This document shows positions 7,064 through 36,265 of a stretch of DNA of 64,000 bases, one piece after another; within the stretch, counting starts at the first letter, position 1; every line of letters begins with the position of its first letter. Where the stretch lies: the sequence record MN850595.1; one strand, written 5' to 3'. The notes below the pieces were generated by a model. That model was not told the origin of the DNA, made no database searches, and saw nothing but the letters and a program-made list of their open reading frames with translations. A program made the position numbers and the translations under genes. Source of the stretch: Escherichia phage naswa.

Positions 7064-7076
7064 AGAGTACAATCAA

Positions 7077-7777: not shown

Positions 7778-7789
7778 GGAGAGAGTGTT

Positions 7790-8272
7790 ATGTCAGATTT
7801 TATGTGGAAAGTAGGTTATGCCTCTCCTGAAATGTGCGAGGCTTGCTTTGTAAAAATAGGCCGCGAGGATATTGACAAAGTGATCTTTAAGTTTCGTGAT
7901 GTATCTGTGATCGGCAACCGAGTGCTTAAGCACTTAAAGAATCTGAAGCTCACCAAAAAGAAGTTCTTCGGACTTTTCGAAGAGAAAGTTGATGCTTGGA
8001 CCCATTGCATTCAGGAAGCTAAATCTCACTACAGTGCTATCGTTACCCCAGAACGGGTAGCCAAGATGGAAGGATTCATCAACAGCACAGAGTTTGAGTG
8101 CCTAAAGGCTGCCCTTAATAGTTATCCAAAGTGCCTCAAACACCTTGACAAGTATGTAGAAAAGGATGGGGAAATGTATCTCACCCTGGACGCATATTAT
8201 GAGATGCAAGAAATTTTAAATTTAGATTTGACATTGGTATCCACCGAGTATACAATAGGTATCCGGGTTTAA
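7790..8272 (+). CDS. Hypothetical protein
   Basis: 160 aa ORF with AAGGAGAGAG RBS. Confidence 0.55.
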   Translation: MSDFMWKVGYASPEMCEACFVKIGREDIDKVIFKFRDVSVIGNRVLKHLKNLKLTKKKFFGLFEEKVDAWTHCIQEAKSHYSAIVTPERVAKMEGFINSTEFECLKAALNSYPKCLKHLDKYVEKDGEMYLTLDAYYEMQEILNLDLTLVSTEYTIGIRV

Positions 8273-8277
8273 CACTA

Positions 8278-8305
8278 GGCCCTGCCCGAAAGGGTGGGGC
8301 TTTTT
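8278..8305 (+). terminator. Rho-independent terminator (hairpin GCCCTGCCC-gaaa-GGGTGGGGC + T5)
   Basis: Perfect GC hairpin followed by TTTTT; same 22-bp hairpin recurs at 18424. Confidence 0.65.
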
Positions 8306-8323
8306 GCATTAGGAGACAGCAAA

Positions 8324-9088
8324 TTGAAATTTATCTACAAAGAACACTACCACAAAGGTGTTGTGTGGAGTCTATTTGACGGGTCTGGTGGTGCAGTCAT
8401 TGACTGGGCAAAAGCTGGGTACCTGTGCCTGTGCTTTAATGCAGAAGGCGCTGATCACGGCAGTTATGCAGAGGTTATAACCGATCATCCCAACATTCAC
8501 TATGTGGATTATTGGATTGACCCATGGTTCCCTCAGGAAACTTTTTGCATGTACCCAGCTCCAGACTTTATTCTTGCATTTCCTCCGTGCACGCATTTAG
8601 CGGTATCAGGTGCTGCACATTTTAAGAAAAAGCTGGCTAAGGACCCTCTGATCCAAATTAATGCCGTAAAGGATGCTCGGGTTGCGGAAGAGCTGGGAGA
8701 GATTTACGATTGCCCGTGGCATGTAGAGAATCCTGTGGGTGTTATGTCCACACTGTGGCGCAAACCTGATTACCGTTTTCATCCTTCTGACTATGGTGGG
8801 TATTTACCGGAGGATGATGTAAACCCTTGGTTTCCTGAATTTATAGCTCCACGTGATGCCTATCCAAAAATAACTTGCGGCTGGATAGGTAATGGATTTA
8901 TAATCCCGCCCACAAAACCTGTCCCGCAAATAGTTGACGCGGTTAGCGGGTATTCTATGCAACACGCCAAGCTGGGTGGAAAGAGTGCAAGAACGAAGAT
9001 GATTCGAAGTCTCACACCACGTGGCTGGGCAAAAGCCGTATTCTTAGCAAACGAGCCTGTAGTAAGGAGCAGAATTAATGGGAAGTAA
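8324..9088 (+). CDS. Putative DNA (cytosine-5)-methyltransferase-like protein, short form
   Basis: Motifs in C5-MTase order: LFDGSGG (I), FPPCTHLAVSG (IV-like PC), HVENPVGV (VI ENV-like); start set to TTG after AGGAGA because track start lies inside terminator. Confidence 0.45.
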   Translation: MKFIYKEHYHKGVVWSLFDGSGGAVIDWAKAGYLCLCFNAEGADHGSYAEVITDHPNIHYVDYWIDPWFPQETFCMYPAPDFILAFPPCTHLAVSGAAHFKKKLAKDPLIQINAVKDARVAEELGEIYDCPWHVENPVGVMSTLWRKPDYRFHPSDYGGYLPEDDVNPWFPEFIAPRDAYPKITCGWIGNGFIIPPTKPVPQIVDAVSGYSMQHAKLGGKSARTKMIRSLTPRGWAKAVFLANEPVVRSRINGK

Positions 9089-11156
9089 ATTTATGGCATC
9101 TGCATACAACCGTTTCGGTGAGCCAAACCCGAAAGCAACTAAGTATAAAAGTGGGGGGAGTGTGAAACGAGACTATCGTGATGAAAAAGAAGTTGAAACT
9201 GTAGAGACTGTTTTAGAAAATACTAAAATTGTCCCTGTCCCACAACAAAATATCGGTCTGATGGCTGCACAATATTTTGGTGTGCGATCAGCATTGTCCC
9301 AAGAAGACGGTGTGACAGTCACTGCAACATATTTCCCATATTACGACCGCTACGGAAATCTGTCTGGTTTCAAAAAGCGTGACTGGACTATTCCTAAAGA
9401 GCAAAGGGGCCATTTCTCCGTTGTTGGCATCGTAAAGGCCAACTCCCAGATGTTTGGTCAAAAGCTGTGTGCATCTTCCAACAACCGTAAGCAGATTAAC
9501 GTTTGTGAGGGAGAAGGTGATGTTATTGCAGCATGGCAGGCTGCATATCAGATACAAGTAAAAGGGATTCTCACCAACGCTAAAGCCCCGGCAAAGGTGA
9601 AGCAGTGGGCTAAAGAGGTCCAGGACGGGATCGACGCAGTTATCAACGGTGGTGATCTGGCAGGAAAACCCTGCCTGCCTTTTGTTGGAATTAACTGTGG
9701 ATGTGCAAACGCAGTAGATACTTTTGCAAACAATGAGAAGTTTATCCGTAGCTATGGAACAGTTGTGCTGGCAATGGATAACGATGCAGCTAACGAGGTA
9801 GAGAAGCAAAAACACGTCATTAAAGGTGTTGAGGCCACGCACAATATCGCAGCATTTTTGATGTCTGATAACGTTTACCACGTAGAATACCCCGGTGAAG
9901 TAAATGACCCTGACGGTGTAAAAGATATCCGAGACATGCTGAAGGCTAAAAAGCTGGAAGATATTGTCAACATGTTCCGGCACCCTGTTAAATATGTGCC
10001 TGATGCTGTGTCGGATTTAGAAGACTTCTCTATCGAGTCTTTGCGGAAAAAGACTTCCAACGGGGTAGATATCAGTGCAGAGTTCCCAAAACTGCAAAAA
10101 ATGCTAAAAGGCTTGCACAAAGGGACACTTGTAATGCTTACAGGTCCATCAGGCGGCGGTAAAACAACCGTGGCTAAAAAACTGGAACACTGTATTGCAA
10201 GATACCTAATGGACCCGACATGCCCGAAGGCCGATGACTATGAAGAGGATGATCGTCTATGCATGATCCATCTTGAGGAGGATCCAGAGGAAGCAATTAA
10301 CTCCTTGTATGCAAACCAGTTAGGGTTTGATGTTAAAGAGTTTGTTGAAGATCCTAGCCAGTTTTTAACTGATCAAGAACACGCAGAGATTCACCAATCA
10401 TGGGCAAAAGCTGGAAAAATCAAAGTGTTCAAACATTTCGGGTCTATTCCGGTGGACGAGTTGATTACCAAGCTTAAGCAAATGGTTTGCCTGTACCATT
10501 GTCGTTATATTGTGCTGGATCACCTGTCCATGGTAATTTCAGGGCTTAATGTTAAGGATGAGCGAAAAGAACTGGACATGGCTATGACCCAACTGGCTGC
10601 GTTTTGTAAGCAGTTTAACGTGTTTATCTTGGTGATCGCTCACCTCAAACGTACAGAGATTGTGCCCCCTAAGGACAAGGATGGTAACCCATTACCTTTC
10701 TGGTATCCTGTGCGAAAAGAGAATTTGCGAGGATCGGCTGGGCTTGAACAGTTGAGTTGGGTAGTCATAGGTGTCGAGGCCGAAGAAATGGTGGATCGTT
10801 CTCGTGGACGTGTCCGTCTGGTAGGTCTTAAAAACCGTCCAGCAAAAACTTTAGGTATTGCTGACACTTTAGTTATGGATCCGCATACAGGTAAGTTCCA
10901 TGATGCCAGTAATTGGTACTGGGACAAAGAAATGCAGATGTTCACAGACGGAGAAGGTGGGGAGGTTGTTTGGAGACCTCAGGCTATGTTTGAGGATCAG
11001 GAGCATGCAGTTGTAGAAACACCTATGGGCAAGGTTGTGGCTGATAAGGTTGTAACACCCACTGTCAAGCCTATTGACACGCAGGAAGACCTCCAATACG
11101 ATGATCCATCCTCTGATCCGGTCCCTGGTTTTGAGGATGATGAAACACCTTTTTAA
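9078..11156 (+). CDS. Primase-helicase (TOPRIM primase domain fused to DnaB-like helicase)
   Basis: TOPRIM-like CEGEGD and MDNDAANE; Walker A LTGPSGGGKTT; DnaB-family helicase motifs; acidic C-terminal tail ending DDETPF. Confidence 0.8.
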   Translation: MGSKFMASAYNRFGEPNPKATKYKSGGSVKRDYRDEKEVETVETVLENTKIVPVPQQNIGLMAAQYFGVRSALSQEDGVTVTATYFPYYDRYGNLSGFKKRDWTIPKEQRGHFSVVGIVKANSQMFGQKLCASSNNRKQINVCEGEGDVIAAWQAAYQIQVKGILTNAKAPAKVKQWAKEVQDGIDAVINGGDLAGKPCLPFVGINCGCANAVDTFANNEKFIRSYGTVVLAMDNDAANEVEKQKHVIKGVEATHNIAAFLMSDNVYHVEYPGEVNDPDGVKDIRDMLKAKKLEDIVNMFRHPVKYVPDAVSDLEDFSIESLRKKTSNGVDISAEFPKLQKMLKGLHKGTLVMLTGPSGGGKTTVAKKLEHCIARYLMDPTCPKADDYEEDDRLCMIHLEEDPEEAINSLYANQLGFDVKEFVEDPSQFLTDQEHAEIHQSWAKAGKIKVFKHFGSIPVDELITKLKQMVCLYHCRYIVLDHLSMVISGLNVKDERKELDMAMTQLAAFCKQFNVFILVIAHLKRTEIVPPKDKDGNPLPFWYPVRKENLRGSAGLEQLSWVVIGVEAEEMVDRSRGRVRLVGLKNRPAKTLGIADTLVMDPHTGKFHDASNWYWDKEMQMFTDGEGGEVVWRPQAMFEDQEHAVVETPMGKVVADKVVTPTVKPIDTQEDLQYDDPSSDPVPGFEDDETPF

Positions 11157-11214
11157 TGTTTAACAAAGAGTGGGAGGGGTAGTACAACCGCCTCCCCTTT
11201 AAGGAGAACTGTAT

Positions 11215-13992
11215 ATGAGCATGTGGTCGTTCGATTTTGAGTCATCCGGTTTGCTGGAAGACCCAGATCTTTATTATCACTGCGGTCTGTTTAAAGAGCT
11301 GAATAAGAACCGTTTTATGCTGTTCCTTCCTCTAAATGACCGCACACACTACTCCGGGGAGGATATAGAAAAGGCTAAGAACTTCATTCTGGCAAAGAAA
11401 ACTCTTTATAAAGATTTTGAAGTTCGCATAGCAGATTTTTCGGAGTTGGAAGGTTGGCTTACAGGCAATTCTGACTGGTCACCAACAGCTTTGAACTGCC
11501 ATAACTGCTACAGTTATGACTTTATGCTGATGGAAAGATTATCCGGTATTCATTTTGATATGTTCCGTGATCCTAAATGCATGGGGACTATCAACGACCA
11601 CCAGGTTAACCTGTTTGATACGTTGGCGATGAGCAGAATCTTGTGGCCTGATCGCCCTTTACCAAAAGGTTGTCCGGACTCTGTATTCAACCCGGTTACT
11701 AAGAAAATGCAGCCTGTTGGTCCTCACGGCCTTATGGCATGGGGCTACGCCCTTGGTAACCAGAAAGTTCAAATTGATGACTGGCGCGATCTTCCGTTGT
11801 GGAAGTATGTGGATCGTGTATTCGAGGACGTTATCATCCAGGAGCTGCTCTGGAAAGAGCTGGTAGCGGAATCAAAAGGCGTATTCTACGGCAAATCTGA
11901 CATGCAGAACTTTATGTACGATCCAGCCAAAGAGAAGCCGAAAGGGTTCAAGAAAATCACCTGGAAGAACGCATTACGCCGAGGCATGCTGCAGCACTTC
12001 CTGATGGAGCTGCAGGCCCGTCAGGGTGTGTATTTCGACATAGATGGGGCTATTGCCTTACGTGACCGTTGCGATGCGTGGATGAAAGAGATCGCTGATC
12101 GTGTTGAACCTCAACTTCCTTTAAAAGAGTTGTCAATGTCTCAGCGGCCCAAGTTCCCTGAAAAGCCGTTTAACCAAGACGGGACAATCTCCAATAATGG
12201 TTGGAAATGGTTAAAAGATAAGCTTGGCTATCCTGTAGACATGAGCGCTTTAGAATTCAAAGCCCCGCCTAAGCGAGCATTTACCTCCACAGGAGATGTC
12301 AGCAAGATGGGGATAAAATGGTGCGAAGAGATGGGCTGCAAAGACCCCGACAAGATGGCTGATTTCTTGAGAGGTTATATTAAGGGCACCTCCACACCAC
12401 AACCTTTACCTAAAGAGCTGATGGATCAGGCAATAAGTGATCTGCAGCAGAAGCGAATGCCTGACTGCAAGATACCTATGAAAATCAGCAATCAGGACGA
12501 CATTAAGCGATACCTGATCAGTGCTGGTTGGCTTCCGACAATGTGGAGAACTAAGGATGTAACTAAGGACAGCAAGAAGAAAGCTCTACCTGATGCAGAT
12601 GTTGATGCACGAGTATATGCATACATGGACGAGCTTTTAGAGTCAGAGTATTGTGACCTAATTATCAACTTCTGGAACAAAACTGATGCTAAGTTTCAGA
12701 CAACAGTGCACAAGTTCCGAAGCTTTCCTAACTCCGAAAGGATTAAAAAGGAAGTGTTCGGGAAAATACGCAGAAAAGCCAGGGCACTTATTACTTCTCC
12801 GCAACTGAAAGATACGTTTGGACACCTATGTCCGAATCTTGAAAAATTGAACGGAGAGATGGCTAAAGATATCGTCTTGTGGTTATCATTGCGAAACCGC
12901 AGATCGGTCCTTGATCCAATCAAGGAGGATAAGGTTGATACTGGTCTTCTTAATCACCCACGTTTGAAGATTGACCATAAGCTTCCTGCTAAAAGCTCTG
13001 GATTAACAAACACTTCCCGACAGAAACACAGTATTTGTGCAAACATGCCTAAACCATCTCCTAAAGTGGTTATGGGTAAAGAGATGCGTAGCTTGTGGGG
13101 TGTTCCTCCTGGATACTTTGAGATCGGTATTGACGGGTCCAACTTAGAGCAGCTTATCGGGGCTTGGGGTGCCTTTGAGTTCGACAACGGCTTGTACTAT
13201 GATGTTGTAAGTAACGGAGACGCACACCAAAACAATGCTGAAGCATATACAAAAGTAGCAGGCAGAGAGGTGTCTCGTAACGACGGTAAACCTATCACGT
13301 ATGGGGTTATGTACGGGGCACAAAAAGATAAAGTTGCAGATATGCTGGATATCTCCCCAGAGTTGGGGCAAAGGGTGATCGATGCACTTTGGGATGCCAA
13401 CCCCGGTCTTAAGGGGCGCAAAGAGGATCTGGAGAAATTCTGGGAAGCAACAGGTAAGAAGTTTATCTACTCTTTTGATGGTCATGCTATCTGGACCCGA
13501 TCTAAACACTCTTTACTTAATGCATACCAACAAAATGGTGGTGCATCGCTGTGTGACTTAGTTGGGATACTCATGCACCACCAAATGGTGAAGCGTGGGT
13601 GGTACGATGAAGGTGTCCGTCGTATTATCTATTACCATGACGAATATCAGCTTCAAGTGCCTGACACACCGAAGTATAAGACTGTGTACACCTTCGACAC
13701 AATTGAAGAACTGGAAGCATTTAAGGCAGAGCAGGAAGCCAAACTTCATGTGTTCGACGGTCATAAGTACAAAAAGGTACGCAAGGATGAGGACGGAAAC
13801 GAAGTGGTTGACAGAGACGGAAACACGGTGTACGATCCTATCCTGAACGATGACGGAAAGCTTGAACTTATCTGGAGCCCTGTGGGTGAAATGGTGGTGC
13901 ATTGCTTCTGGCAAGCTTCTAAAATGATGGGAGTCCCGTTCCAGATCACAGGTGAATACTTGTGTGGTCGTAATTGGGGTGATTGTCACTAA
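11215..13992 (+). CDS. Family A DNA polymerase with 3'-5' exonuclease domain
   Basis: Exo motif FDFESSG near N-terminus; pol A motif B KPITYGVMYGAQ and motif C YYHDEYQ; AAGGAGA RBS. Confidence 0.85.
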   Translation: MSMWSFDFESSGLLEDPDLYYHCGLFKELNKNRFMLFLPLNDRTHYSGEDIEKAKNFILAKKTLYKDFEVRIADFSELEGWLTGNSDWSPTALNCHNCYSYDFMLMERLSGIHFDMFRDPKCMGTINDHQVNLFDTLAMSRILWPDRPLPKGCPDSVFNPVTKKMQPVGPHGLMAWGYALGNQKVQIDDWRDLPLWKYVDRVFEDVIIQELLWKELVAESKGVFYGKSDMQNFMYDPAKEKPKGFKKITWKNALRRGMLQHFLMELQARQGVYFDIDGAIALRDRCDAWMKEIADRVEPQLPLKELSMSQRPKFPEKPFNQDGTISNNGWKWLKDKLGYPVDMSALEFKAPPKRAFTSTGDVSKMGIKWCEEMGCKDPDKMADFLRGYIKGTSTPQPLPKELMDQAISDLQQKRMPDCKIPMKISNQDDIKRYLISAGWLPTMWRTKDVTKDSKKKALPDADVDARVYAYMDELLESEYCDLIINFWNKTDAKFQTTVHKFRSFPNSERIKKEVFGKIRRKARALITSPQLKDTFGHLCPNLEKLNGEMAKDIVLWLSLRNRRSVLDPIKEDKVDTGLLNHPRLKIDHKLPAKSSGLTNTSRQKHSICANMPKPSPKVVMGKEMRSLWGVPPGYFEIGIDGSNLEQLIGAWGAFEFDNGLYYDVVSNGDAHQNNAEAYTKVAGREVSRNDGKPITYGVMYGAQKDKVADMLDISPELGQRVIDALWDANPGLKGRKEDLEKFWEATGKKFIYSFDGHAIWTRSKHSLLNAYQQNGGASLCDLVGILMHHQMVKRGWYDEGVRRIIYYHDEYQLQVPDTPKYKTVYTFDTIEELEAFKAEQEAKLHVFDGHKYKKVRKDEDGNEVVDRDGNTVYDPILNDDGKLELIWSPVGEMVVHCFWQASKMMGVPFQITGEYLCGRNWGDCH

Positions 13993-14041
13993 TGTAAACT
14001 ATCAACACATGGAAGTGTTGTTGAGCAAAGAGGAGACTTTT

Positions 14042-15457: not shown

Positions 15458-15486
15458 TTGACAACAGTCATAGGGCCTACTATAAT
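15458..15486 (+). promoter_or_regulatory. Sigma70-like promoter (TTGACA-17-TATAAT)
   Basis: Perfect consensus hexamers with 17 nt spacer; -10 sits inside inverted repeat TAGGGCC/GGCCCTA. Confidence 0.6.
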
Positions 15487-15517
15487 GGCCCTATCAAAAC
15501 GAAAGGGGACCACAGCA

Positions 15518-21984: not shown

Positions 21985-22450
21985 GGGATTTCTAAAATGG
22001 ATTTCCTCCTTTTGATATTTCACCGGGCTGGATATTTTAAAATTCTTAGAAAATCAGAAAATGGATCGAAAACTAAAATGGATTTTTCAGAGTAGGCGCG
22101 ACAAGCTGAATAGCTCATCCTATCGTTTGCACCATATTCCAGACCACCATTATAGATTTCCCACACATGCTAACCTCCCTCTACTAGAACTTCCTCCACT
22201 TACCCTTGACCTTCTATGGTAACAATCTAACCACTATCTTGAAGTTGCGGTGCAGCTTTCCAGGTACTCGATCTACTTTTCATTTCAGGGCTTGGATTTT
22301 CTGAAAATTTTTCTCGATAAATTTCTCAGTACTCGATCTGTTTTTCGTTTTCTGAATCGGATTTTCTGGAAATCGTTCCGGATCTCGACCTGAAATTTTT
22401 GGGGACGAAATCTATTTTTCGTTTTCAGAAATGGATTTTTAAAATTTCTA
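21985..22450. repeat. Iteron-like direct repeats (AAAATGGATTT units) plus ~55-bp tandem repeats
   Basis: At least four AAAATGGAT(T/C) units and two to three copies of a GTACTCGATCT...GGATTTTCTG unit. Confidence 0.6.
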
Positions 22451-22916
22451 TATGGGAATATTTTATGGGGCACTGTTTTATAGGAAATTGTTACGGAGGG
22501 TAATTAGCATGCTAATTAAATTTATTAAATGCGAGGGATTCTTATTTAGAATTTTGAATGATAATTATTCTCGTTTGCAGAATAACGGGCAGGCCCGGTG
22601 ATTGTCTCCCGGCCCCTGCTGCCCCGGCTTGTTATTATAGTATCACACAGGACAAAGAAGGCAAGGATTTTTTGCATAAATTTTTAAATGATAATGATAA
22701 CCGTTCTCATTTTATGAAGCGCCCATCCCCGGTGGTTGTCTCCCCCGTCACCGGTGCCTGCCGTCCTTTCGATAGGTATATTATGCCGCCTGGCGGGGCC
22801 GCTGTCAACACTTTTCAAAAAATTTTTCTAACCTGATGCGCTAACCGTTGCAACCTGGCGGGGCCAGCCTGGCAGGTCCGCACTATAAAGTAAACAGCTA
22901 CAGAAGAGGTACAAAA

Positions 22917-23833: not shown

Positions 23834-23915
23834 AAATCATTGACACGCTGCAAAATTTAAGTAAACTAGACACAAAAGGCGGGAATGTTTCCCGCCAGCA
23901 CAAAGGAAAAAGATC

Positions 23916-24311
23916 ATGAATAAGAACGTACGCCGCATCATGAACGAACTGGCAAACGATGAAAAAATTATTGATATGCATTTGGTCAACATTTGCCGCC
24001 GTTGTGTAACATATAACAACCGCGCCGCAAAAGCGCGTGAGATGAACGCAAAAGGCACCTTAAAGCCCTTTCAGGTGGTTGTAAAATCTATAACTAGCGC
24101 AGCAGGCCAGGCGCAGGACCACAACAACGAGAGCGCTAATATTGATCCGTCTTACGTAATGAAACGGATCCGGACTTGCAAGAATAAAGAGCAGGTATAT
24201 AACGTCATAGATTGGCTGGACTCCCTGGGCGATGTGGTTTACAATAGGTTTTCTGCAGCTATCGAGATCCAGCTTGACAGATTGGACGGGAAAGTACTAA
24301 AAACTTATTGA
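23916..24311 (+). CDS. Hypothetical protein
   Basis: 131 aa ORF; leader hairpin GGCGGGAA-TGT-TTCCCGCC then CA-rich tract and RBS. Confidence 0.55.
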   Translation: MNKNVRRIMNELANDEKIIDMHLVNICRRCVTYNNRAAKAREMNAKGTLKPFQVVVKSITSAAGQAQDHNNESANIDPSYVMKRIRTCKNKEQVYNVIDWLDSLGDVVYNRFSAAIEIQLDRLDGKVLKTY

Positions 24312-24315
24312 GTTT

Positions 24316-24358
24316 ATTTTTAGATGGCCTTGACACCAGGGCCATCAATAAAGTAAAC
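24316..24358 (+). promoter_or_regulatory. Conserved ~45-bp promoter module, copy 1
   Basis: TTATTTTTAGATGGCCTTGACACCAGGGCCATCAATAAAGTAAAC; -35 TTGACA inside 7-bp inverted repeat GATGGCC/GGCCATC. Confidence 0.55.
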
Positions 24359-24391
24359 TAACCACAGTTGAGCGGAAAAGGGGGCTTAAAG

Positions 24392-24511
24392 ATGAGCACT
24401 ACACGCCAGCACACAAAGGTAACCATCATCGTTTGCATCATTGGGTACATCCTGGCGCAAATGTTGATGGGTAGCGCCAACGGTGTCGCAAAATTTTTCT
24501 TAAACTTTTAA
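24392..24511 (+). CDS. Small membrane peptide (39 aa), not in ORF track
   Basis: ATG after GGGGG RBS downstream of module promoter; hydrophobic core VTIIVCIIGYILAQMLMG. Confidence 0.35.
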   Translation: MSTTRQHTKVTIIVCIIGYILAQMLMGSANGVAKFFLNF

Positions 24512-24512
24512 T

Positions 24513-24540
24513 TGACAAGCTAACTTAAATCGATATAATA
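24513..24540 (+). promoter_or_regulatory. Sigma70-like promoter (TTGACA-16-TATAAT)
   Basis: Consensus hexamers upstream of 24591 gene. Confidence 0.55.
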
Positions 24541-24590
24541 AGCACATAAACGGGAAAACTTCCCAGAACACACAAAAGGAGAAAAACACC

Positions 24591-24932
24591 ATGACTACTA
24601 TGACCGCCTCAGAAAAAGCTATGCAGATCGCTGAACTGAAAAAACAGATCGCAGACCTTGAGAATAAGATCGATAACTTTGAAATCGACGAGGACAAGTA
24701 CGACGAAAACTATGATGAATGGTTAGACGAGATCTACGGCGAAATTATGATCGGAAACATTTCTTTTCTTCCGTCGCGTATCCTCAAGGAGCTAGATCCT
24801 ATCGCTTACCGCTGCGGATTTAGCGACTACATCGACAGCCTGGATATTGAGGACGATGAAGAATACCAGGAATTACAGACAGAGTTAGAAGAAGCAAAAG
24901 AAGAGCTTGCGGAGCTGGAAGAAAACGAGTAA
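24591..24932 (+). CDS. Highly acidic small protein (possible DNA mimic)
   Basis: 113 aa, Asp/Glu-rich throughout; own promoter and AAGGAGA RBS. Confidence 0.55.
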   Translation: MTTMTASEKAMQIAELKKQIADLENKIDNFEIDEDKYDENYDEWLDEIYGEIMIGNISFLPSRILKELDPIAYRCGFSDYIDSLDIEDDEEYQELQTELEEAKEELAELEENE

Positions 24933-24933
24933 G

Positions 24934-24976
24934 CTTATTTTTAGATGGCCTTGACACCAGGGCCATCAATAAAGTA
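24934..24976 (+). promoter_or_regulatory. Conserved ~45-bp promoter module, copy 2
   Basis: Near-identical to 24316-24358. Confidence 0.55.
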
Positions 24977-25021
24977 AACTTTATACTGTTAACACTGAAC
25001 TAATGCATAGGAGTTAAAACC

Positions 25022-25267
25022 ATGGCAGCACTAATCACCAAATATTATGCCCCTACCAACACCAAAAGCGCCCGTATCATGGTAAAAGGCTTCGGACGTA
25101 AAAAGGTGTACACCTGGGATTATGCCTTAGACACGGAAGACAACTACACCAACGCAATGACCGATTTTATTAATGAACTAAATAAGCAGATCTTGACAAG
25201 TTATAAAGTGACCGATATTGCTTATATAGGTGAAGGCGGGATCTGTTTTGTAGGCATTGTGAAATAG
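25022..25267 (+). CDS. Hypothetical protein
   Basis: 81 aa ORF with AGGAG RBS. Confidence 0.5.
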   Translation: MAALITKYYAPTNTKSARIMVKGFGRKKVYTWDYALDTEDNYTNAMTDFINELNKQILTSYKVTDIAYIGEGGICFVGIVK

Positions 25268-25310
25268 TTATTTTTTCGGTGGTCCTGGTTGCAGGGCCAT
25301 CTATAAAGAT
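25268..25310 (+). promoter_or_regulatory. Promoter module, diverged copy
   Basis: T-run, GGTCCTG/CAGGGCC inverted repeat around TTGCAG, then CTATAAAGATAAT. Confidence 0.4.
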
Positions 25311-25341
25311 AATTTATTAACACCATGAAAGGAGAAAGTAC

Positions 25342-25695
25342 ATGATCAGCGGGGCAAGTTTTATTATTGGCGCTATTGCTACGGCTTTAATTGTAAATAA
25401 GATCCAGGATAAAAAGGAAAGAGGAAGTACCGCCCTTGCAGAATATCCATTTTGGGCATTCAACGATAACGAAGATTATATTATAAAGTATAAAAATAAA
25501 GAAGGTGACCAAGTAACACCGCGACCGATCCCGGCTTACAAAATGCAGGAAACACTATACCGCCTGGAGGCGGGAGGCGCAAAAATTGTAGACTTTTGGG
25601 GATACGACCACACAGATCAGGAAGTTATAAAGCGCCGTATCCGGGCTATTCAGGCCAATATTGAAGTTAGCAAGGGGGGAATATATGAAAATTAA
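25342..25695 (+). CDS. Hypothetical membrane-anchored protein
   Basis: N-terminal TM helix; GGAGA RBS. Confidence 0.5.
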   Translation: MISGASFIIGAIATALIVNKIQDKKERGSTALAEYPFWAFNDNEDYIIKYKNKEGDQVTPRPIPAYKMQETLYRLEAGGAKIVDFWGYDHTDQEVIKRRIRAIQANIEVSKGGIYEN

Positions 25696-25882
25696 TTTCG
25701 AGAAAATTGTAAAGCGCCCTCATGATTCCGAAGAGCTGCCAGAACGCCGCCAGCGTAACAATAAACTGAATAAGCCAAAAAGGTTTGGGAAGATCTGGCG
25801 TAATCATTATGATCGTAAATTGCCCGGCCTACTTTTGGAACGTGAACGACAGGCAGAACGATACCGCCATAAAGACAAATAA
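25685..25882 (+). CDS. Small basic protein
   Basis: Lys/Arg-rich 65 aa; GGGGGA RBS; followed by terminator. Confidence 0.4.
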   Translation: MKINFEKIVKRPHDSEELPERRQRNNKLNKPKRFGKIWRNHYDRKLPGLLLERERQAERYRHKDK

Positions 25883-25890
25883 CAACCAAC

Positions 25891-25918
25891 GCCCCGCCAT
25901 TGTGCGGGGCTTTTTATT
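25891..25918 (+). terminator. Rho-independent terminator
   Basis: GCCCCGC-cattgt-GCGGGGC followed by TTTTTATTT. Confidence 0.65.
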
Positions 25919-26063
25919 TCTATCCTACGAATAGCGCCCCTGGTTGGCCCCACAAACGCCACAAAAGCCCCTACCTATGCAATCCCCTTTCTTGACCTGA
26001 AAACAACGTCTAGGGCCGTTTTATGGCGTTAAAAATATTATTGACAGTGATTTTATTCAAAGC

Positions 26064-26092
26064 TTGACACCTTGGAATAGTCCGGATATACT
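26064..26092 (+). promoter_or_regulatory. Sigma70-like promoter (TTGACA-17-TATACT)
   Basis: Consensus hexamers; second TTGACA lies 20 bp upstream. Confidence 0.5.
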
Positions 26093-26123
26093 AACCACAT
26101 CAAAGCAAGAAGGAGTAAACGCC

Positions 26124-26384
26124 ATGCGTAAATTAAAAAATTTTGATAAAGTAGATGTTGTCCTGAATAATTTTTACTACTGCAATAATAAAGCCGTTTG
26201 GTGGCGTGATAGTTCCACCGATAAAGTTAAAGCGCGCTTTCTCCAGGGGCACTGGCAAGGCCGCCCAGTGATTAAAATCTTAGGGCAATTGGTAGCGTTT
26301 AAAAATTGCCACCGTGTTGACGACGTTGAAGATATTTTGAACATTTTACGCCACAATAATTTAAAAAATAGTGTTGACAAGTAA
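26124..26384 (+). CDS. Hypothetical protein
   Basis: ATG after AAGGAG RBS. Confidence 0.5.
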   Translation: MRKLKNFDKVDVVLNNFYYCNNKAVWWRDSSTDKVKARFLQGHWQGRPVIKILGQLVAFKNCHRVDDVEDILNILRHNNLKNSVDK

Positions 26385-26401
26385 GCCTCAATAAGTATAC
26401 T
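26374..26401 (+). promoter_or_regulatory. Sigma70-like promoter (TTGACA-16-TATACT)
   Basis: Consensus hexamers overlapping end of upstream gene. Confidence 0.5.
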
Positions 26402-26458
26402 TAAACACACAGGCGGGAAAACTTCCCGCCACTAACAAAGAAAATAGGAGAAAATATC

Positions 26459-27082
26459 ATGACCACCGTTAACATTACTACAGGTTACAATTTATCTTTC
26501 GACGTGCTGACCGACGAACAAAAAGAAAAAGCCGTTGAAATGGTCCGCGAAAGAGAAGAACACAGCGGGGATAATTTTTTTGCAGAAAGTGTAATTGAAT
26601 ACTATAAAGAATATGTTTTTCCAGAGTATGGCCTTGAAGATACCGAAGTACATTGGTCAGGCTTTTGGTGCCAGGGTGACGGCGCGTCAATCAGTGCGGA
26701 AAACGTGGATTTAGAAAAATTCTTGCGTAAAGTAAAGGCCCTGACCAAGTTCCGATCAATTCGTCACTTGTTCGGCACAATGCACGATGGCGAGCTATCC
26801 GCAAGTGTTGAGCGTGATCCATATAGCCGCTATAGTCACGAAAACACTGTAAGCGGGTACATCGATACTACATGGCTAGACCTGACCGCCAAACAAGAAA
26901 ATAAAGTGGAAGATCTGGAAGAGCTGATCACCGAGACGGTACGGGAGCTATCCCGCAAGGTTTACGTAGACCTGGAGGAGGCCTATCTTGAGCAATTTAC
27001 CGCCGAAAACTTGATCGGCCTTATCGAGGCAAATGATTGGCGGTTTGATGTGGATGAGCATGGCGAGATGAGTTTTTCATAA
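26459..27082 (+). CDS. Hypothetical protein (largest of the early small-gene array, 207 aa)
   Basis: Leader hairpin GGCGGGAA-AAC-TTCCCGCC then CA-rich tract and AGGAGA RBS; no recognisable motif. Confidence 0.55.
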   Translation: MTTVNITTGYNLSFDVLTDEQKEKAVEMVREREEHSGDNFFAESVIEYYKEYVFPEYGLEDTEVHWSGFWCQGDGASISAENVDLEKFLRKVKALTKFRSIRHLFGTMHDGELSASVERDPYSRYSHENTVSGYIDTTWLDLTAKQENKVEDLEELITETVRELSRKVYVDLEEAYLEQFTAENLIGLIEANDWRFDVDEHGEMSFS

Positions 27083-27171
27083 ATAAAGTGTTGCAATAAT
27101 CTAAAAACCTGCTATATTAAAACTCAAGGGGCAAGACGTTTGCCCCCACACAAAACAAAGAGGAAAACATC

Positions 27172-27552
27172 ATGAAAAACACTACTAAAGCTATTGACAC
27201 CGTCATGTTTAACCTGGTTACATTCCGTGAAGATATGAAAGATCTTCCTCGTGAAACAGTGTGCGACCATATCGAAAACTATCGCAAACTAATCAAAGAG
27301 TTGCCTTTAAAACGTGATCAATATGCGGCTAACGCCATGCTTAATGCCATGATCAAAAAGATGATCCAGTGTGATTTAACCCTGGCCTATGATTATGCAG
27401 GCGGTCGTTTTGCAGTATACAATCAGCCCGTGCCCGGTATGAGCACCACCGAAGAATTGCACGCGCTCAATCTAAAACAAGACGTGTGGGATAGTATGCC
27501 TCGCGTGGTGGTATGGGTAGAAAGCGGAAAGATTTACGGCGATAATTTTTAA
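27172..27552 (+). CDS. Hypothetical protein
   Basis: 126 aa ORF with own promoter, leader hairpin and AAGAGGA RBS. Confidence 0.55.
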   Translation: MKNTTKAIDTVMFNLVTFREDMKDLPRETVCDHIENYRKLIKELPLKRDQYAANAMLNAMIKKMIQCDLTLAYDYAGGRFAVYNQPVPGMSTTEELHALNLKQDVWDSMPRVVVWVESGKIYGDNF

Positions 27553-27616
27553 TCAGGTAGCAGGCGGCATATTTGCCGCCTTATTGTTAATCAGAACTGT
27601 AAAAGAGGTACATAGA

Positions 27617-27988
27617 ATGGAATTTATTATTTTGGCTGTATTTGTTGCCTTGTTCAACGCCTGGATCGCTGGCAAGATGGGTAGATCCGCCTTTTTATGG
27701 TTTATTATATCTATTTTCCTGGGGGTGGTTGCAACTATTGTACTTGTTATCCTTGCAATTGTTGACAAGGGGAATAATAGAAAGGGTAAAGTATTTTCAG
27801 ACCTGTACGACGCTCAAACGTTTGTCAACGCCTATTATAGTGATCTTCCAGTCTCCCTACGCTGCAGCCTGGCACAACAAGTTTTCGATGAGGCTAAAAC
27901 CAGAGATCAAGCCCATGAGATATGTTTAACTGAGGCGGATCGCCTATTTGAGAGGAATAGAAAATATGTGGGCCAACCGTTTAAATAA
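27617..27988 (+). CDS. Hypothetical membrane protein
   Basis: Two predicted TM helices; ATG after AAGAGG RBS. Confidence 0.5.
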   Translation: MEFIILAVFVALFNAWIAGKMGRSAFLWFIISIFLGVVATIVLVILAIVDKGNNRKGKVFSDLYDAQTFVNAYYSDLPVSLRCSLAQQVFDEAKTRDQAHEICLTEADRLFERNRKYVGQPFK

Positions 27989-28187
27989 TGCCACATTAAT
28001 TAATCCCTTTAGTGAAGATTTGAAGCCAGCCGCCTGGCGTGATGGATTCAATAACGAACGCTTTATTTTCAAGCCTGATCTTGAGGAATTTTATAACAAT
28101 GGATCGAACAACGACAGAGATAATTTTTCTTGTGGTGTGCGTAGTGATGGTACTCCTGGGGGCCATTGTAAACCACGTCACTACTAA
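27966..28187 (+). CDS. Hypothetical protein
   Basis: ATG after GAGAGGAA; overlaps upstream gene end. Confidence 0.4.
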   Translation: MWANRLNNATLINPFSEDLKPAAWRDGFNNERFIFKPDLEEFYNNGSNNDRDNFSCGVRSDGTPGGHCKPRHY

Positions 28188-28207
28188 CAGGGGGAAAGGG
28201 GGAGACG

Positions 28208-28327
28208 ATGACACCCAAGGATAAGCCCCGCACCGATAAGGCGCGCCGTGTTATGGTATGGCTTGAGATCATCGCCCTTGAAATATTGTTAGGGGTAGGG
28301 ATGTACTTTATCGCTGTAAGTAACTAA
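28208..28327 (+). CDS. Small membrane peptide (39 aa), not in ORF track
   Basis: ATG after GGGGGAG RBS; hydrophobic C-terminal half; followed by terminator. Confidence 0.35.
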   Translation: MTPKDKPRTDKARRVMVWLEIIALEILLGVGMYFIAVSN

Positions 28328-28330
28328 GAA

Positions 28331-28360
28331 CGGCCCCCCGATCATGGGGGCCTATCTTTT
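28331..28360 (+). terminator. Rho-independent terminator
   Basis: GGCCCCC-cgatcat-GGGGGCC followed by T-rich tract. Confidence 0.6.
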
Positions 28361-28464
28361 AAAAAAATTCTTCCGGGGTGTTGCAATCCGGTCCGGAATG
28401 TGGATAATAACAATCAACGGGGAGCTAATCCCCACCACCACAAAAACCAGAAAGGAGAAACAAA

Positions 28465-28665
28465 ATGAGCAACAATATCCGCGTTATTAACTTCAAAAAA
28501 GAAGAAAAAATTGCCGTGCTGATTGACGGTCAAGAAATCTTCAAGGGCGACTATGAAGATCATCAAACGGCGATTAGTATCACTCGCGTGATTGGTTACC
28601 ATAATTTTTACCCCCAAGGCGCTGAGGCAGCGGTTAAACGAATCAAAGAGATTGTAGGCCTGTAA
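28465..28665 (+). CDS. Hypothetical protein
   Basis: 66 aa ORF; leader hairpin, CA-rich tract, AAGGAGA RBS. Confidence 0.5.
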   Translation: MSNNIRVINFKKEEKIAVLIDGQEIFKGDYEDHQTAISITRVIGYHNFYPQGAEAAVKRIKEIVGL

Positions 28666-28667
28666 AA

Positions 28668-28710
28668 TTTATTTTTAGATGGCCTTGACTCCAGGGCCAT
28701 CAATAAAGTA
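28668..28710 (+). promoter_or_regulatory. Conserved ~45-bp promoter module, copy 3
   Basis: TTATTTTTAGATGGCCTTGACTCCAGGGCCATCAATAAAGTAAAT, one mismatch in -35. Confidence 0.5.
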
Positions 28711-28759
28711 AATTTAAACCCTGTTAAAAATACCACGCAGTTAACAAGGAGTGATAGAC

Positions 28760-30291: not shown

Positions 30292-30471
30292 ATGGCTATT
30301 ATTGCAAAGACTGAGATCGTAGGCTTAGATTCTATTCTCCTCGCATATGAGGAAGCTATAGAAATGTATGTGGTTTCCTATGGTGAGTATATTCGTGAAT
30401 ATAAATCTATTGATCTGGCTTTTGAATGTTATATTCGCCAGGTAAATAAAGCATATGATGATTATCGTTAA
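30292..30471 (+). CDS. Small hypothetical protein (59 aa), not in ORF track
   Basis: ATG after AAAGAGGA RBS, leader hairpin GGGGGC-aaca-GCCCC. Confidence 0.45.
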   Translation: MAIIAKTEIVGLDSILLAYEEAIEMYVVSYGEYIREYKSIDLAFECYIRQVNKAYDDYR

Positions 30472-30477
30472 AATAGT

Positions 30478-30505
30478 TTGACAACAATTACAAATCGGGT
30501 AGAAT
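30478..30505 (+). promoter_or_regulatory. Sigma70-like promoter (TTGACA-16-TAGAAT), paralogous module 1 of 3
   Basis: Consensus hexamers; downstream leader GTATTTCGTAGGGCGG shared with the 30970 module. Confidence 0.5.
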
Positions 30506-30556
30506 GTATTTCGTAGGGCGGCAATGATGCCGCTCACAACTAAAAGAGAGATCATC

Positions 30557-30751
30557 ATGGCGCTTAAAAAACTAACAAGCAATACTCGTTGGGATGAAAT
30601 CGACGGGGAAGTTTACATTTTTGCCCGTAAACCAGGGGATCAAAAATGGTCAAAGGCTTTTACTTGCCATCCTGCAACAATAGATCTGATAAAAAGTCAA
30701 GGACTACGTGAAGCAGTAGCAAGAAGTTTACTGATCCCTTGTAAAAATTAG
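30557..30751 (+). CDS. Small hypothetical protein
   Basis: ATG after AAAGAGAG RBS. Confidence 0.45.
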   Translation: MALKKLTSNTRWDEIDGEVYIFARKPGDQKWSKAFTCHPATIDLIKSQGLREAVARSLLIPCKN

Positions 30752-30752
30752 T

Positions 30753-30780
30753 TTGACAACAGTCAACAATCTGGTAAAGT
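30753..30780 (+). promoter_or_regulatory. Sigma70-like promoter (TTGACA-16-TAAAGT), paralogous module 2 of 3
   Basis: AGTTTGACAACA shared with module 1. Confidence 0.5.
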
Positions 30781-30828
30781 GTACTACATAGCGCGGGAAT
30801 ACTTCCCGCCATTAATGAGGGTAATTTA

Positions 30829-30966
30829 ATGAAAACTTTCAACGCAACAGCCTCGACAATTGGTTATATTATTACAGTACAAGCCGTGGATCTGGTAGCA
30901 GCAGCAAACAAGATTAAAAAGATGATTCCGCCAGGTAGTGAATTTTCCGTTTGGGAAGTAAAATAA
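30829..30966 (+). CDS. Small hypothetical protein (45 aa), not in ORF track
   Basis: ATG after TAATGAGGGTA RBS context shared with next gene. Confidence 0.4.
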   Translation: MKTFNATASTIGYIITVQAVDLVAAANKIKKMIPPGSEFSVWEVK

Positions 30967-30969
30967 ATC

Positions 30970-30997
30970 TTGACAATAGTTTATTACTTGATAGACT
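30970..30997 (+). promoter_or_regulatory. Sigma70-like promoter (TTGACA-16-TAGACT), paralogous module 3 of 3
   Basis: Consensus -35; leader duplicates that of module 1. Confidence 0.5.
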
Positions 30998-31049
30998 GTA
31001 TTTCGTAGGGCGGGGCAATAAGGCAACGCCCATTAATGAGGGTAGAATC

Positions 31050-33202: not shown

Positions 33203-33268
33203 TACAACAAGTTACGGTCAGGGGGGTAATAAAGCCCCTTGATCACATAAAAATTATGCTATCCCTGG

Positions 33269-33297
33269 TTGACAGGGATCGGCAGTTTTGCTATATT
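33269..33297 (+). promoter_or_regulatory. Sigma70-like promoter (TTGACA-17-TATATT)
   Basis: -35 embedded in inverted repeat ATCCCTG/CAGGGAT. Confidence 0.5.
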
Positions 33298-33766: not shown

Positions 33767-33783
33767 TTTTTTAACTGAATTAT

Positions 33784-33810
33784 CAAGGGGCTTAGGCCCC
33801 TTTCTTTTTG
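33784..33810 (+). terminator. Rho-independent terminator
   Basis: AAGGGGC-tta-GCCCCTT followed by TCTTTTTG. Confidence 0.6.
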
Positions 33811-34429
33811 TCTGCTCTTCCCCCCCTACCATAAACGGCCCTACCTGGCAAGTGGAATAATTGACGAGCCATCAATCCCACACACTGTACAAATATACAT
33901 GGAAAATAACTATTGCATAATTTTTCATTGTGTGGTAGCAAGGCCATTTTTACCCGTTTTACCTTCCAAAATTGCACGTAATGCCGCTATTGCACAAATT
34001 TTAACCTGATGCACATCTCCAATATCTTGTCAACAACTAAAAATCTTTATAAGTCATGCACTTACATAACCACAAAAGCGTGTTCTACGTGAAAAATCGA
34101 GTATAACTATAGCCGCCAGATCTCAGAATTTACGTACGCTCACCAGTCTATAGCCTGCTAAGTATTTATTCCAACCATAGAATAACGGAATAGTCAATAC
34201 CTGCATAAAATAATTATTCGTGTAAACTGCATAACATAAATCGGCTAGGATGTCAACATTTTTCGTAAACAGCTCGAAATTATAACGGTGAGTTATAATA
34301 AACAGAGAAATCTTTAGTCGTCTAATGTTTACTGTACATTACTATACTGACTGGAATCATTAGATGACTAAGAGAAAGATAAGAAATCATTAACAATGCA
34401 ATTGTTTTATTCGTAACAATAAGGCAACT

Positions 34430-34680
34430 ATGCAAACGAATGGCATGGCGCGACGGAGTCGCGACATAATATAAAAGCAGTAACCATCACCCCCGTGATA
34501 GTTTGTCTGCAAACTATTAATCAGATCATAGTTGCCTTGTATTTAGTTAATCATGACATAACAAGCAGGGCAACTATAGATCTGCTAATAGTTGCCCTGC
34601 TTTTATATTATGTCATGCTAATTATAATCAGTGCGATTATTGTCATGTATAATTATTGTCATGCAAACGAATGGCATGGC
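34430..34680. repeat. 20-bp direct repeat ATGCAAACGAATGGCATGGC (34430-34449 and 34661-34680) flanking a nested ~64-bp palindrome (34553-34616)
   Basis: Exact 20-bp repeat 231 bp apart; ATGACATAA...GCAGGGCAACTAT-10 nt-ATAGTTGCCCTGC...TTATGTCAT; ATTATTGTCATG also repeated. Confidence 0.6.
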
Positions 34681-34692
34681 TGATTATCGGTG

Positions 34693-34788
34693 TGTAAACA
34701 GTCAATCATGTAAATGGTTAGCATGTGAACAATCAGGAATGTAAACAATCCAGTGTGTAAACTAATAGGTGTGTAAAAGTGTCATGTT
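34693..34788. repeat. Six tandem iterons with 16-bp periodicity (core TGTAAAC)
   Basis: TGTAAAC/TGTAAAT/TGTGAAC units starting at 34693, 34709, 34724, 34740, 34756, 34772. Confidence 0.65.
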
Positions 34789-36265
34789 GTGTCAGTTAGG
34801 TCACATTATGTCAGACAAGTTTTTCTCCTCTTTGTCAAGTGCTGCATGAAAAATTTACAAGCTTGTATGGTAGCATTTTTGCGGCCCTGTTTACATTCAG
34901 GAGTGTATGTATAATCCTTGGTGTGTGGGCGTTTAGACGTCTAGACGGTTGGAAGTATGCAGGTCAATATCTAATCTATTGGCTGCTAACTATATCCCAC
35001 ACAAATGATAAGAAATATAATTGTTATATGCGTAAACTGTAACTCATGTTATCAATCCCTGTATGTATCGCCAGTGGTGCGCATAATGGGTATTATGTTA
35101 AATTGCCCGTAATGATAACTATTCTCACAATGATAGGTATTCTCATTCACCCCCACAAGATAGGTTGCAAATGTTGTGCCACTGTGTGAACGGCCTAGCC
35201 TATTAATTTGCCTCACTGCCTTGATATTTGAGAATTGTTATAAGAATGAGAAGTATTCCCATTTCGTCCGCCTGGCAGCACTCCAGTCGCTACCGGCTCC
35301 TGACAGGGCAGCTCTCCTGTAGGTCAGGTCAAAATCGTGGTAGAATTGGGCCTATTCAGATATTTCTGGCTGACTCTTCAGGTCTGTGTGAGAAAAGCCA
35401 ACCTTTCCGGCGGCGGGGAGGGGTCAATTAAAAAATTTACGTGGTGTATGAAGCGCTCTTCAGGTAAGGCAGGTATTATGTGATGAAACCCTCTTCAGGC
35501 AATGATATTTGTGGGTGTGATATTTGCTGGAAAGCCAGATATGACGGGACTCCCGGCGGGGCAGGGGTAGTACAGACAGGGAAAATATGGGGGATGTAGT
35601 TGGGGAAATTGATCAGGCAGGTAGAGTATGGAATATGTTACAAGTATGTTAAATATGGAGGTTGAATATCTGCAGGATTTGTGTGTAAAATCAAAGACTT
35701 AAGTGGTGTTGTGGTATTTTCTATAAATAATTCAAGTTTAATAGGTAATATTTGTCTCTATCCACTTTGTGTGGTAAACAGATTCAGATGAAATTGGTTT
35801 ACAAGTGTATACATAATATACAAATTAAAGATACAAGAAACCCCCCTCCCCCTTCGGCTACCATTCACCTTTTCCTCTGACTGGTACTTAAACACTTATT
35901 CAGACTCTTCAGGTTATCACCCATATATCATATGGCAGTGACTGGTGTCCTCCGGCCCCTCTTTCGTCACCCGTCCGCTTCGCCATGCTAATGCCATAGC
36001 CAATGGTTCGGTTGTTCACCCTGTTCACTCAGGTGTATCTCCATACCCCTTCAAACCGAAGAGAACAGAAAACCCGAATTACTCGGTAAAAGAAAAGAGA
36101 AGAACTTAATTTTATCAGGATAGGCAAGAATGTCAAGGCATGACTGCTCACTAAACAAGCAAACAGTCATGTGTGGTAGGTAAGTGATTGTGGTGGTAGG
36201 AAATTTAGTTGAAAGATGTGTTATAGGTGCGCTTCCAGCACTTTAGCCGGGCAGCTAATTGTGTG

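Follow-up and report, generated by a model that had tools for sequence, protein, structure and literature searches.

Processing of early messages by ribonuclease III (RNase III) is textbook knowledge for bacteriophage T7 and its relatives. Five RNase III signals are present in the T7 early precursor RNA of ~7000 nt (PMC3867540). Substrates of the enzyme span about two helical turns, in which internal loops allow cutting of a single strand and preserve a hairpin that protects the 3′ end. A positive determinant, the distal box UA/UG, adjoins the loop-closing pair, at least 11 bp are needed between the cut and the tetraloop, and G-C is disfavoured at positions 2 and 4 of the proximal box (PMC1540722). 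A second described system, the PeSLs of the T4-type phages RB49 and phi1, has a terminating GGGG...CCCC stem-loop and, after it, a distinct AT-rich block and a promoter (PMC2839356, PMC4122927). In the 64,000-nucleotide stretch of Escherichia phage naswa analysed here (MN850595.1, referred to as the window), a 49-nt module is repeated four times between small early genes. Comparison of sequences and predicted folds makes it fairly likely that this module is a T7-type RNase III processing signal, formed as a hairpin in the sense-strand RNA. It probably cuts and stabilizes early messages, any role as a promoter being at most secondary. Such signals in phage early messages are already known, and the two twists here are the promoter-like hexamers inside the hairpin and its use as a point of recombination. 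In the literature searched, RNase III processing of early messages was not described for the rV5-like myoviruses.

The fold of the module and its likeness to T7 early sites

A repeat search placed the module at 24311–24359 (module A), 24932–24980 (module B, 98% identity) and 28666–28714 (module D, 94%), with a diverged copy at 25266–25314 (module C, 71%); all four are on the + strand and are confined to 4.4 kb. A 24-nt core, GATGGCCTTGACACCAGGGCCATC, is exact at 24323 and 24944 and has one mismatch at 28678, as compared with 0 occurrences expected from 100 shuffles. Modules A, B, and D are 94–100% identical to each other and have unrelated flanking sequences. The original prediction had described a conserved promoter module repeated four times, one of the copies being diverged; the repetition is borne out by the core count, the shuffles and the repeat search, and the module starts that it gave were correct to 1–2 nt. 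Over the 7 kb around the modules, identity is 99.9% to the rV5-like myovirus Escherichia phage EmilHeitz (Bas49, MZ501062.1; genus Vequintavirus) and 93–97% to ~120 other Vequintavirus records. The modules lie within a long block of small + strand genes of unassigned function that has many consensus sigma-70 promoters and is the early region. Each module begins at the stop codon of the upstream open reading frame (ORF), or at most 1 base from it, and ends 27–45 nt before the next start codon. Module A starts on the last base of the TGA at 24309–24311 (ORF 23916–24311, the next ORF running from 24392), module B starts on the last base of the TAA at 24930–24932 (ORF 24591–24932, next ORF from 25022), module C overlaps the TAG at 25265–25267 (ORF 25022–25267, next ORF from 25342), and module D starts one base past the TAA at 28663–28665 (ORF 28465–28665, next ORF from 28760). 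Modules A, B, and C are intercistronic and have no terminator ahead of them, the first terminator-like site being at 25891.

On the + strand, all four modules fold into one hairpin of two helical turns that comprises a 10-bp lower stem, a 2 × 3 internal loop, a 10-bp upper stem, and a tetraloop. The 5′ strand of the lower stem is U-rich and its 3′ strand A-rich, and the upper stem is G+C-rich; folding energies range from −21 to −25 kcal/mol and z-scores from −4.9 to −7.9. In module A, residues 24311–24320 pair with 24350–24359 in the lower stem and 24323–24332 with 24337–24346 in the upper stem, the tetraloop is ACAC, and the internal loop has UA (24321–24322) opposite AAU (24347–24349) (−25.1 kcal/mol, z −7.9). 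Module B forms the same hairpin (−21.1 kcal/mol, z −4.9). In module D, the loop is ACUC and an A-U replaces the G-C as the second pair of the lower stem (−23.6 kcal/mol, z −6.2), and module C has the loop GUUG and a UC/UAU internal loop, with a folding energy of −22.4 kcal/mol on the + strand versus −8.1 kcal/mol on the − strand. A covariance model of the four modules (the module model) scored 71–82 bits on the + strand, where the genes of the block are encoded, and 29–42 bits on the − strand (module A, 80.2 versus 42.4 bits; module C, 70.7 versus 28.9 bits; module D, 81.6 bits on the + strand). The 7-bp inverted repeat GATGGCC/GGCCATC named in the original prediction is present but is only the centre of a far longer dyad, in which an RNA stem of 10 bp stands on a second, A/U-rich stem of 10 bp. 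TTGACA had been placed in the loop of that repeat; only its ACA is in the loop, as part of ACAC, and its TTG is paired in the upper stem.

The T7 sites R0.3, R0.5, R1, R1.1, and R4.7 fold with a lower stem, a 2 × 3 internal loop, an upper stem of 9–10 bp, and a loop of 3–5 nt. The internal loop is UA/AAU in modules A, B, and D, as in R1, and UC/UAU in module C, as in R0.3, R0.5, and R1.1; the 2 × 3 form is present in all 50 of the module copies (30 distinct sequences) that we collected from 14 Vequintavirus loci. The T7 cleavage coordinates, which we take to be 890, 1468, 3138, 5887, and 13892 (Dunn & Studier 1983) and which were checked by internal consistency only, each lie 3 nt past the end of the upper stem, consistent with a cut directly after the 3-nt strand of the loop. 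Like the modules, the T7 early sites are sense-strand intercistronic hairpins of a polycistronic early mRNA, and in two of them, R0.5 (after gene 0.4) and R1 (after gene 0.7), the hairpin likewise starts at the stop codon of the preceding gene. Both kinds of hairpin have about two turns, a G+C-rich upper stem of 9–10 bp, a loop of 3–5 nt, a U·G pair two positions under the loop, and terminal AGU...ACU pairs in the lower stem. They differ in that there is no overall sequence homology between them, T7 lower stems are mixed and irregular whereas the module helix is regular, and sigma-70-like hexamers lie inside the hairpin in three of the modules. The phages also differ, T7 being a T7-like podovirus and the module-bearing phage a 140-kb myovirus that uses the host RNA polymerase and in which cleavage is predicted.

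Covariance models built from the two sets of sites are reciprocal best matches. A model made from six T7 sites only (the T7-site model) was applied without filters to the window on both strands, and its top four matches were the four modules, each at full length and on the + strand, with expectation values (E) of 0.012–0.1 (module B, the best match, 20.7 bits, E 0.012; module D, 19.6 bits, E 0.025; module A, 18.2 bits, E 0.061; module C, 17.4 bits, E 0.1). The best match to this model in the remaining 90 kb of EmilHeitz had an E of 0.49. When the module model was run with filters off on bases 1–14000 of T7, R1 was the first match and R0.3 the second, both at full length. A strict architecture rule (upper stem of at least 9 bp, loop of 3–6 nt, internal loop of exactly 2 × 3, and at least 8 of 10 positions paired in the lower stem) selected the four modules and nothing else when both strands of the window (128 kb) were scanned; it recovered five T7 sites together with one other match in T7 and gave one match, in a coding region, in 100 kb of strands from phage PVP-SE1. 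A relaxed scan (at least 7 of 10 in the lower stem and any internal loop) was too noisy for use. A weak match to the T7-site model (15.6 bits, 33 nt) is located at 62588–62620 of the window, corresponding to 22765–22797 in EmilHeitz. The offset between the two genomes is 60,177 there and 60,868 at the modules, and EmilHeitz would therefore hold ~690 bp that are absent from the window, somewhere between 28.7 and 62.5 kb.

Several of the determinants of recognition described for T7 R1.1 can be located in the modules. In modules A, B, and D (22 distinct sequences), the distal box consists of U·G, U-A, and the closing G-C, as in R1.1. The distance from the predicted cut to the tetraloop is 11 positions, counting the 10-bp upper stem and one loop position. 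In the proximal box of the same three modules, position 2 is A-U and position 4 is an A·A mismatch, both of which are acceptable. From this structure we infer that host RNase III would bind the module hairpin on the polycistronic early transcript and that, because of the internal loop, it would cut the 3′ strand only, after the 3-nt strand of the loop (...GGCCAUC-AAU / AAAGUAAAC...). The predicted cuts follow AAU in modules A, B, and D and UAU in module C, that is, they fall after 24349, 24970, 25304, and 28704. The hairpin left at the 3′ end of the upstream message would protect it by slowing exonucleases, and the cut would free the downstream cistron, whose leader would be short and defined. 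A hairpin just past a coding region that governs the fate of the upstream message is known from lambda sib/int retroregulation and other systems with double-cut RNase III hairpins. At sites of the lambda sib type, both strands are cut and the upstream mRNA is destabilized, whereas the internal loop of the module predicts a single cut, as in T7, that leaves a protective 3′ hairpin.

Distribution and covariation of the module

Run with filters off, the module model found no further copy in the 64-kb window and none beyond these four in the complete ~140-kb genome of EmilHeitz. In a BLAST search, the module was restricted to Vequintavirus, where 120 records contain it, usually as three close copies and one diverged copy each, so that the repetition holds in the complete genome and in related phages as well. 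Seventeen records labelled as Campylobacter phages (MG0656xx) are 94–96% identical to the rV5-like coliphages in this region, and both of the records inspected, A12a and A147, are marked UNVERIFIED, which suggests that the seventeen are mislabelled or contaminant genomes. A pattern scan of IMG/VR for CAGGGCCATCNATAAAG returned 18 stretches, with genuine modules in two rV5-like contigs only and chance matches in the others. A search of Rfam at a permissive threshold over 20–36 kb gave on the modules only sub-threshold chance matches (rhtB small RNA, 23 bits as compared with a gathering score of 55). No T7-type site was found in the early region of PVP-SE1, a member of the sister genus Seunavirus; because of this, and because the architecture rule gave only the one coding-region match there, the element appears from these comparisons to be genus-specific.

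Across the 50 copies, 98.3% of paired cells in the alignment hold a base pair, a value that was reached by none of 500 shuffles, and the proportion drops to 33–58% when the partners are shifted by 1–3 columns. Double changes occur at four pairs of the lower stem, one of which is seen as UA, GU, AU, and GC; the changes in the upper stem are all wobble-compatible, and a U·G is present at position 7 of the lower stem in 29 of the 30 distinct sequences. The diverged module C has CTGGTT in place of TTGACA, yet it keeps 20 of 20 pairs at 71% identity. Its upper stem has three changes, A to G opposite U, C to U opposite G, and U to C opposite G, each of which gives G·U or G-C, and 7 of the 10 pairs are Watson-Crick. 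In the lower stem, two pairs have been replaced through double compensatory changes. Further compensatory changes are seen in this lineage across the phages, from U-A to C-G and from A-U through G·U to G-C. In all 13 loci that hold copy C, the −35 hexamer is absent and the hairpin is complete; conversely, none of the 50 copies retains the hexamers and has lost the hairpin. Dyad symmetry is not maintained at the level of the DNA, because the substitutions in the stem keep G·U pairs in the RNA and break the Watson-Crick symmetry. The covariation, together with the absence of any copy in which the hexamers are retained without the hairpin, indicates that the object of selection is the sense-strand RNA structure, and neither a DNA palindrome nor primarily a promoter.

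The same data bear on the idea that the module is a functionless repeat whose copies resemble each other only through recent duplication and gene conversion. Near identity between unrelated flanks is indeed seen for modules A, B, and D, and recombination between copies is documented (see below). This explanation is nevertheless scarcely credible because of the covariation: a copy at 71% identity retains every pair, the copy C lineage carries compensatory double substitutions across phages, and 120 genomes in the database carry the element, at the same four positions.

Less easily set aside is the proposal that the conserved hairpin acts in the sense-strand RNA without RNase III, either as a barrier to 3′ exonucleases after cleavage of the A/U-rich leader by RNase E or as the target of a phage RNA-binding protein or nuclease through which the neighbouring genes are regulated. 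Any structured intercistronic RNA could show such a fold, strand specificity, covariation, and position after a stop codon, the A/U-rich flanks are typical of RNase E substrates, and copy C departs from the canonical distal box. We nonetheless regard this proposal as unlikely. A plain barrier needs no conserved 2 × 3 loop, none of the UA/AAU and UC/UAU loops that are shared with T7, no distal box of U·G and U-A, and no second stem of 10 bp, and the reciprocal matches between the covariance models are specific to RNase III sites.

Several observations weigh against a T7-type RNase III signal. In copy C (8 distinct sequences), a C-G replaces the U·G of the distal box, and position 2 of the proximal box is a G·U, which places a purine 2-amino group there; changes of this kind would lower the reactivity of the R1.1 model substrate. 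Because of these two features, module C may be a weaker RNase III site. Positions 1 and 3 of the proximal box are unlike those of R1.1, and the lower stem of the module is almost pure A/U, unlike the T7 sites. The E-values given by the T7-site model for single modules are modest (0.012–0.1), and since the four matches are paralogues, they represent roughly one independent observation. Only four of the many intercistronic junctions in the early region carry the module. In modules A, B, and D, the first two bases of the loop (AC, completing TTGAC) hardly change, in contrast to the variable bases 3 and 4, a pattern that would fit some selection for a −35 element. Finally, no study of transcript ends, transcription start sites, or RNase III was found in the literature for any Vequintavirus.

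Promoter-like, operator-like and terminator-like features

Sigma-70-like hexamers are present on the + strand in module A (24330–24359) and module B (24951–24980) as TTGACA-N18-TAAACT, matching the consensus at 10 of 12 positions, and in module D (28685–28714) as TTGACT-N18-TAAATT, matching at 9 of 12; there are none in module C. The −10-like hexamer belongs to the 3′ strand of the lower stem, at its end, and most of the hexamer bases are also paired bases of the hairpin. Matches of this kind are common in the window, with 62 found as compared with 38 expected by shuffling. The promoter module of the original prediction stands in that three copies have the hexamers, but a primary role as a promoter is not supported, given that copy C lacks the −35 in 13 of 13 loci and has a complete hairpin. 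In the paper that describes the rV5 genome, the module is neither among the 33 predicted promoters nor among the 20 terminators. A moderate restart promoter that would fire just past the hairpin in modules A, B, and D, secondary to the role of the RNA, is possible from the sequence, though we lean against it; it is suggested by the match at 9–10 of 12 positions, the usable 18-nt spacer, and the conservation of the loop bases AC in these modules while the sixth base of the −35 varies between A, T, and C among the phages.

The original prediction went further and proposed operator-like control through the inverted repeat, and the corresponding explanation is that the module is an early sigma-70 promoter in which the −35 lies inside a DNA inverted repeat that serves as the operator for a dimeric regulator of host or phage origin. 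It draws on the TTGACA or TTGACT, the 18-nt spacer, the TAAACT or TAAATT, and the upstream T-run in modules A, B, and D, on the near invariance of the AC loop bases in these copies, and on the abundance of consensus early promoters in the region; TAAACT is also the −10 of a predicted promoter at 23840 and of P194 (rV5 paper). The operator is not supported, because the stem substitutions hold the RNA fold on the sense strand only and destroy the symmetry of the DNA. The G·U-compatible transitions break the dyad to the extent that the minus-strand fold of copy C falls to −8.1 kcal/mol, and the −35 is missing from copy C in every phage examined while its hairpin is conserved by compensatory change. 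The conserved dyad, 49 nt long with a fixed 2 × 3 interruption, extends far beyond the needs of an operator around a −35. In addition, the 18-nt spacer is less favourable, the −10 matches at 4 of 6 positions, the TTG is already accounted for by the distal box and the closing pair, and the promoter search of the rV5 authors did not include the module. A promoter with an operator of this kind is therefore improbable.

Two other promoters had been cited as further cases of core elements inside palindromes. Both palindromes are present but are short single stems of a different kind. At 15458–15495, an 8-bp stem, ATAGGGCC/GGCCCTAT, surrounds TATAAT, with TTGACA at 15458, and at 33261–33297, a 7-bp stem, ATCCCTG/CAGGGAT, overlaps the TTGACA at 33269 (z about −3.3). 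Neither segment was matched by either of the two RNase III models.

Two further candidates for the module were rejected. An intrinsic or bidirectional terminator does not fit because the T-run is 5′ of the stem on both strands, with AAUAAAGUAAAC following the stem on the + strand and UAAAAAUAA on the − strand, and a scan for terminators flagged the module on neither strand. Hairpin promoters of the N4 type, used by a virion RNA polymerase, have stems of 5–7 bp and loops of 3 nt, and no such polymerase is annotated in EmilHeitz. Terminator-like hairpins of another form are present in the same region. A G+C-rich 7-bp hairpin at 25891–25910 is terminator-like on both strands, is followed by TTTTT on the + strand, and probably terminates the transcription unit that holds modules A–C; a second G+C-rich 7-bp hairpin at 28332–28352, also terminator-like on both strands, is ahead of the small ORF upstream of module D.

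The early region contains a second family of repeats in which consensus early promoters, TTGACA-N16-TAnAnT, are followed after ~10 nt by a conserved 8-bp hairpin, GGCGGGAA(nnn)TTCCCGCC. Its hairpins are located at 23878–23896, 24551–24565, 26412–26430, and 30793–30815, and promoters of the family at 30470–30525, 30745–30800, and 30962–31017. This hairpin (−14.6 kcal/mol, z −3.5 to −6.2) would fall at the extreme 5′ end of the transcript and looks like a 5′ stabilizing stem-loop. Just upstream of the early gene cluster, at 22254–22440, are three to four tandem T-rich repeats of ~65–74 nt (families D3 and D6) without a convincing ORF. At the junction of the + strand early block with a − strand block, a gap of ~2.4 kb without an annotated gene (~33770–36215, EmilHeitz 94636–97081) probably corresponds to the "non-coding" box of the rV5 map. 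The ORF at 25342–25695, downstream of module C, is split in the window and fused (540 nt) in EmilHeitz; this and the ~690 bp difference mark the two phages as close relatives that are not identical.

Recombination between copies and possible mobility of gene-plus-site units

In the phages ime, magaca, and ECP32, a single module joins the upstream flank of copy A to the downstream flank of copy B, and exactly the 621 bp between A and B are absent. The module copies therefore also recombine, and the recombination between cassettes that the original prediction had raised is seen in the junctions of these three phages. The segment between modules A and B (24360–24931, + strand) holds a 39-residue ORF (24392–24511), a consensus promoter (24512–24539), a 5′ hairpin, and the 113-residue ORF 24591–24932; it behaves as a cassette, with the deletion junction inside the module. 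At the level of the DNA, the near-identical copies also provide patches of homology of 46–49 bp at which recombination adds or removes gene cassettes.

In these respects, the modules resemble the PeSLs. Both are short, conserved, composite intergenic repeats that flank small genes of unassigned function in a plastic early region, and in both, homologous recombination between neighbouring copies leads to insertion or deletion of cassettes among close relatives (PMC2839356). The module differs in that its hexamers are inside an interrupted hairpin of two turns, a U-run is absent, and four copies occur within 4.4 kb. A cassette of the PeSL type, in which the stem-loop stops transcription from upstream and the promoter restarts it, would account for a repeated intergenic unit among small genes that combines a stem-loop, sigma-70-like hexamers, and an A/T-rich part, and for the removal of a gene cassette by recombination between copies, as described for PeSLs; several early genes of rV5 also have homologues in RB49 (rV5 record). 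In PeSLs, however, the stem-loop precedes an AT-rich region, a −35, and a −10 that are all distinct from it, whereas the hexamers of the module are within its hairpin. The G+C-rich stem of the module is followed by AAUAAAG and not by a U-run, the terminator scan was negative on both strands, and bona fide terminators of the region look different, as at 25891–25910 with its TTTTT. We consider a terminator-promoter cassette of this type very unlikely.

The gene downstream of module B (ORF 25022–25267, 81 residues) has a homologue of 35% identity in the early region of Klebsiella phage phi1_146030 (PP889480.1), a T7-like phage of 40 kb that, as T7 does, encodes a single-subunit RNA polymerase and a serine-threonine kinase. 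In phi1_146030, a T7-type site at 2106–2157 (44.9 bits, E 3.6e-10) lies ahead of CDS0008, the homologue of the 81-residue ORF, and begins at the CDS0007 stop codon. Homologues of this gene are also found in Seuratvirus, Nonagvirus, and Pseudomonas phages, and it is therefore a widely travelled early gene. No significant site was found near the gene in two of the phages that carry it, Seuratvirus Skure and Pseudomonas phage PPpW-4, and a search for related loci with the 81-residue ORF returned two rV5-like contigs only.

A more far-reaching proposal, which we put forward tentatively and consider rather doubtful, is that the module might be a portable unit of dual purpose, combining an RNase III site and a restart promoter in 49 bases, that keeps each small early gene on a message of its own regardless of its neighbours and, through its DNA identity, serves as a crossover point for the exchange of such genes, and that units of gene plus site might move between unrelated groups of coliphages. 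The mobility of such units is suggested because the homologue in the T7-like Klebsiella phage is likewise preceded by an RNase III hairpin that starts at a stop codon.

The rV5-like myoviruses are a large group that is widely used in phage therapy and biocontrol and is represented in the BASEL collection. If the modules are RNase III processing signals, the likely annotation of these repeats would be corrected, since they would be neither usual promoters nor terminators, and the exact transcript ends of four early genes would be predicted. A perfect TTGACA in an intergenic repeat is, as a caution, not necessarily a promoter. The finding would also mean that one RNase III recognition code (the 2 × 3 loop, UA/AAU or UC/UAU, and the UA/UG box) is common to unrelated phages of the same host, and, with the PeSLs of T4-type phages, it would bring to two the examples of regulatory repeats at which recombination also shuffles small early genes.

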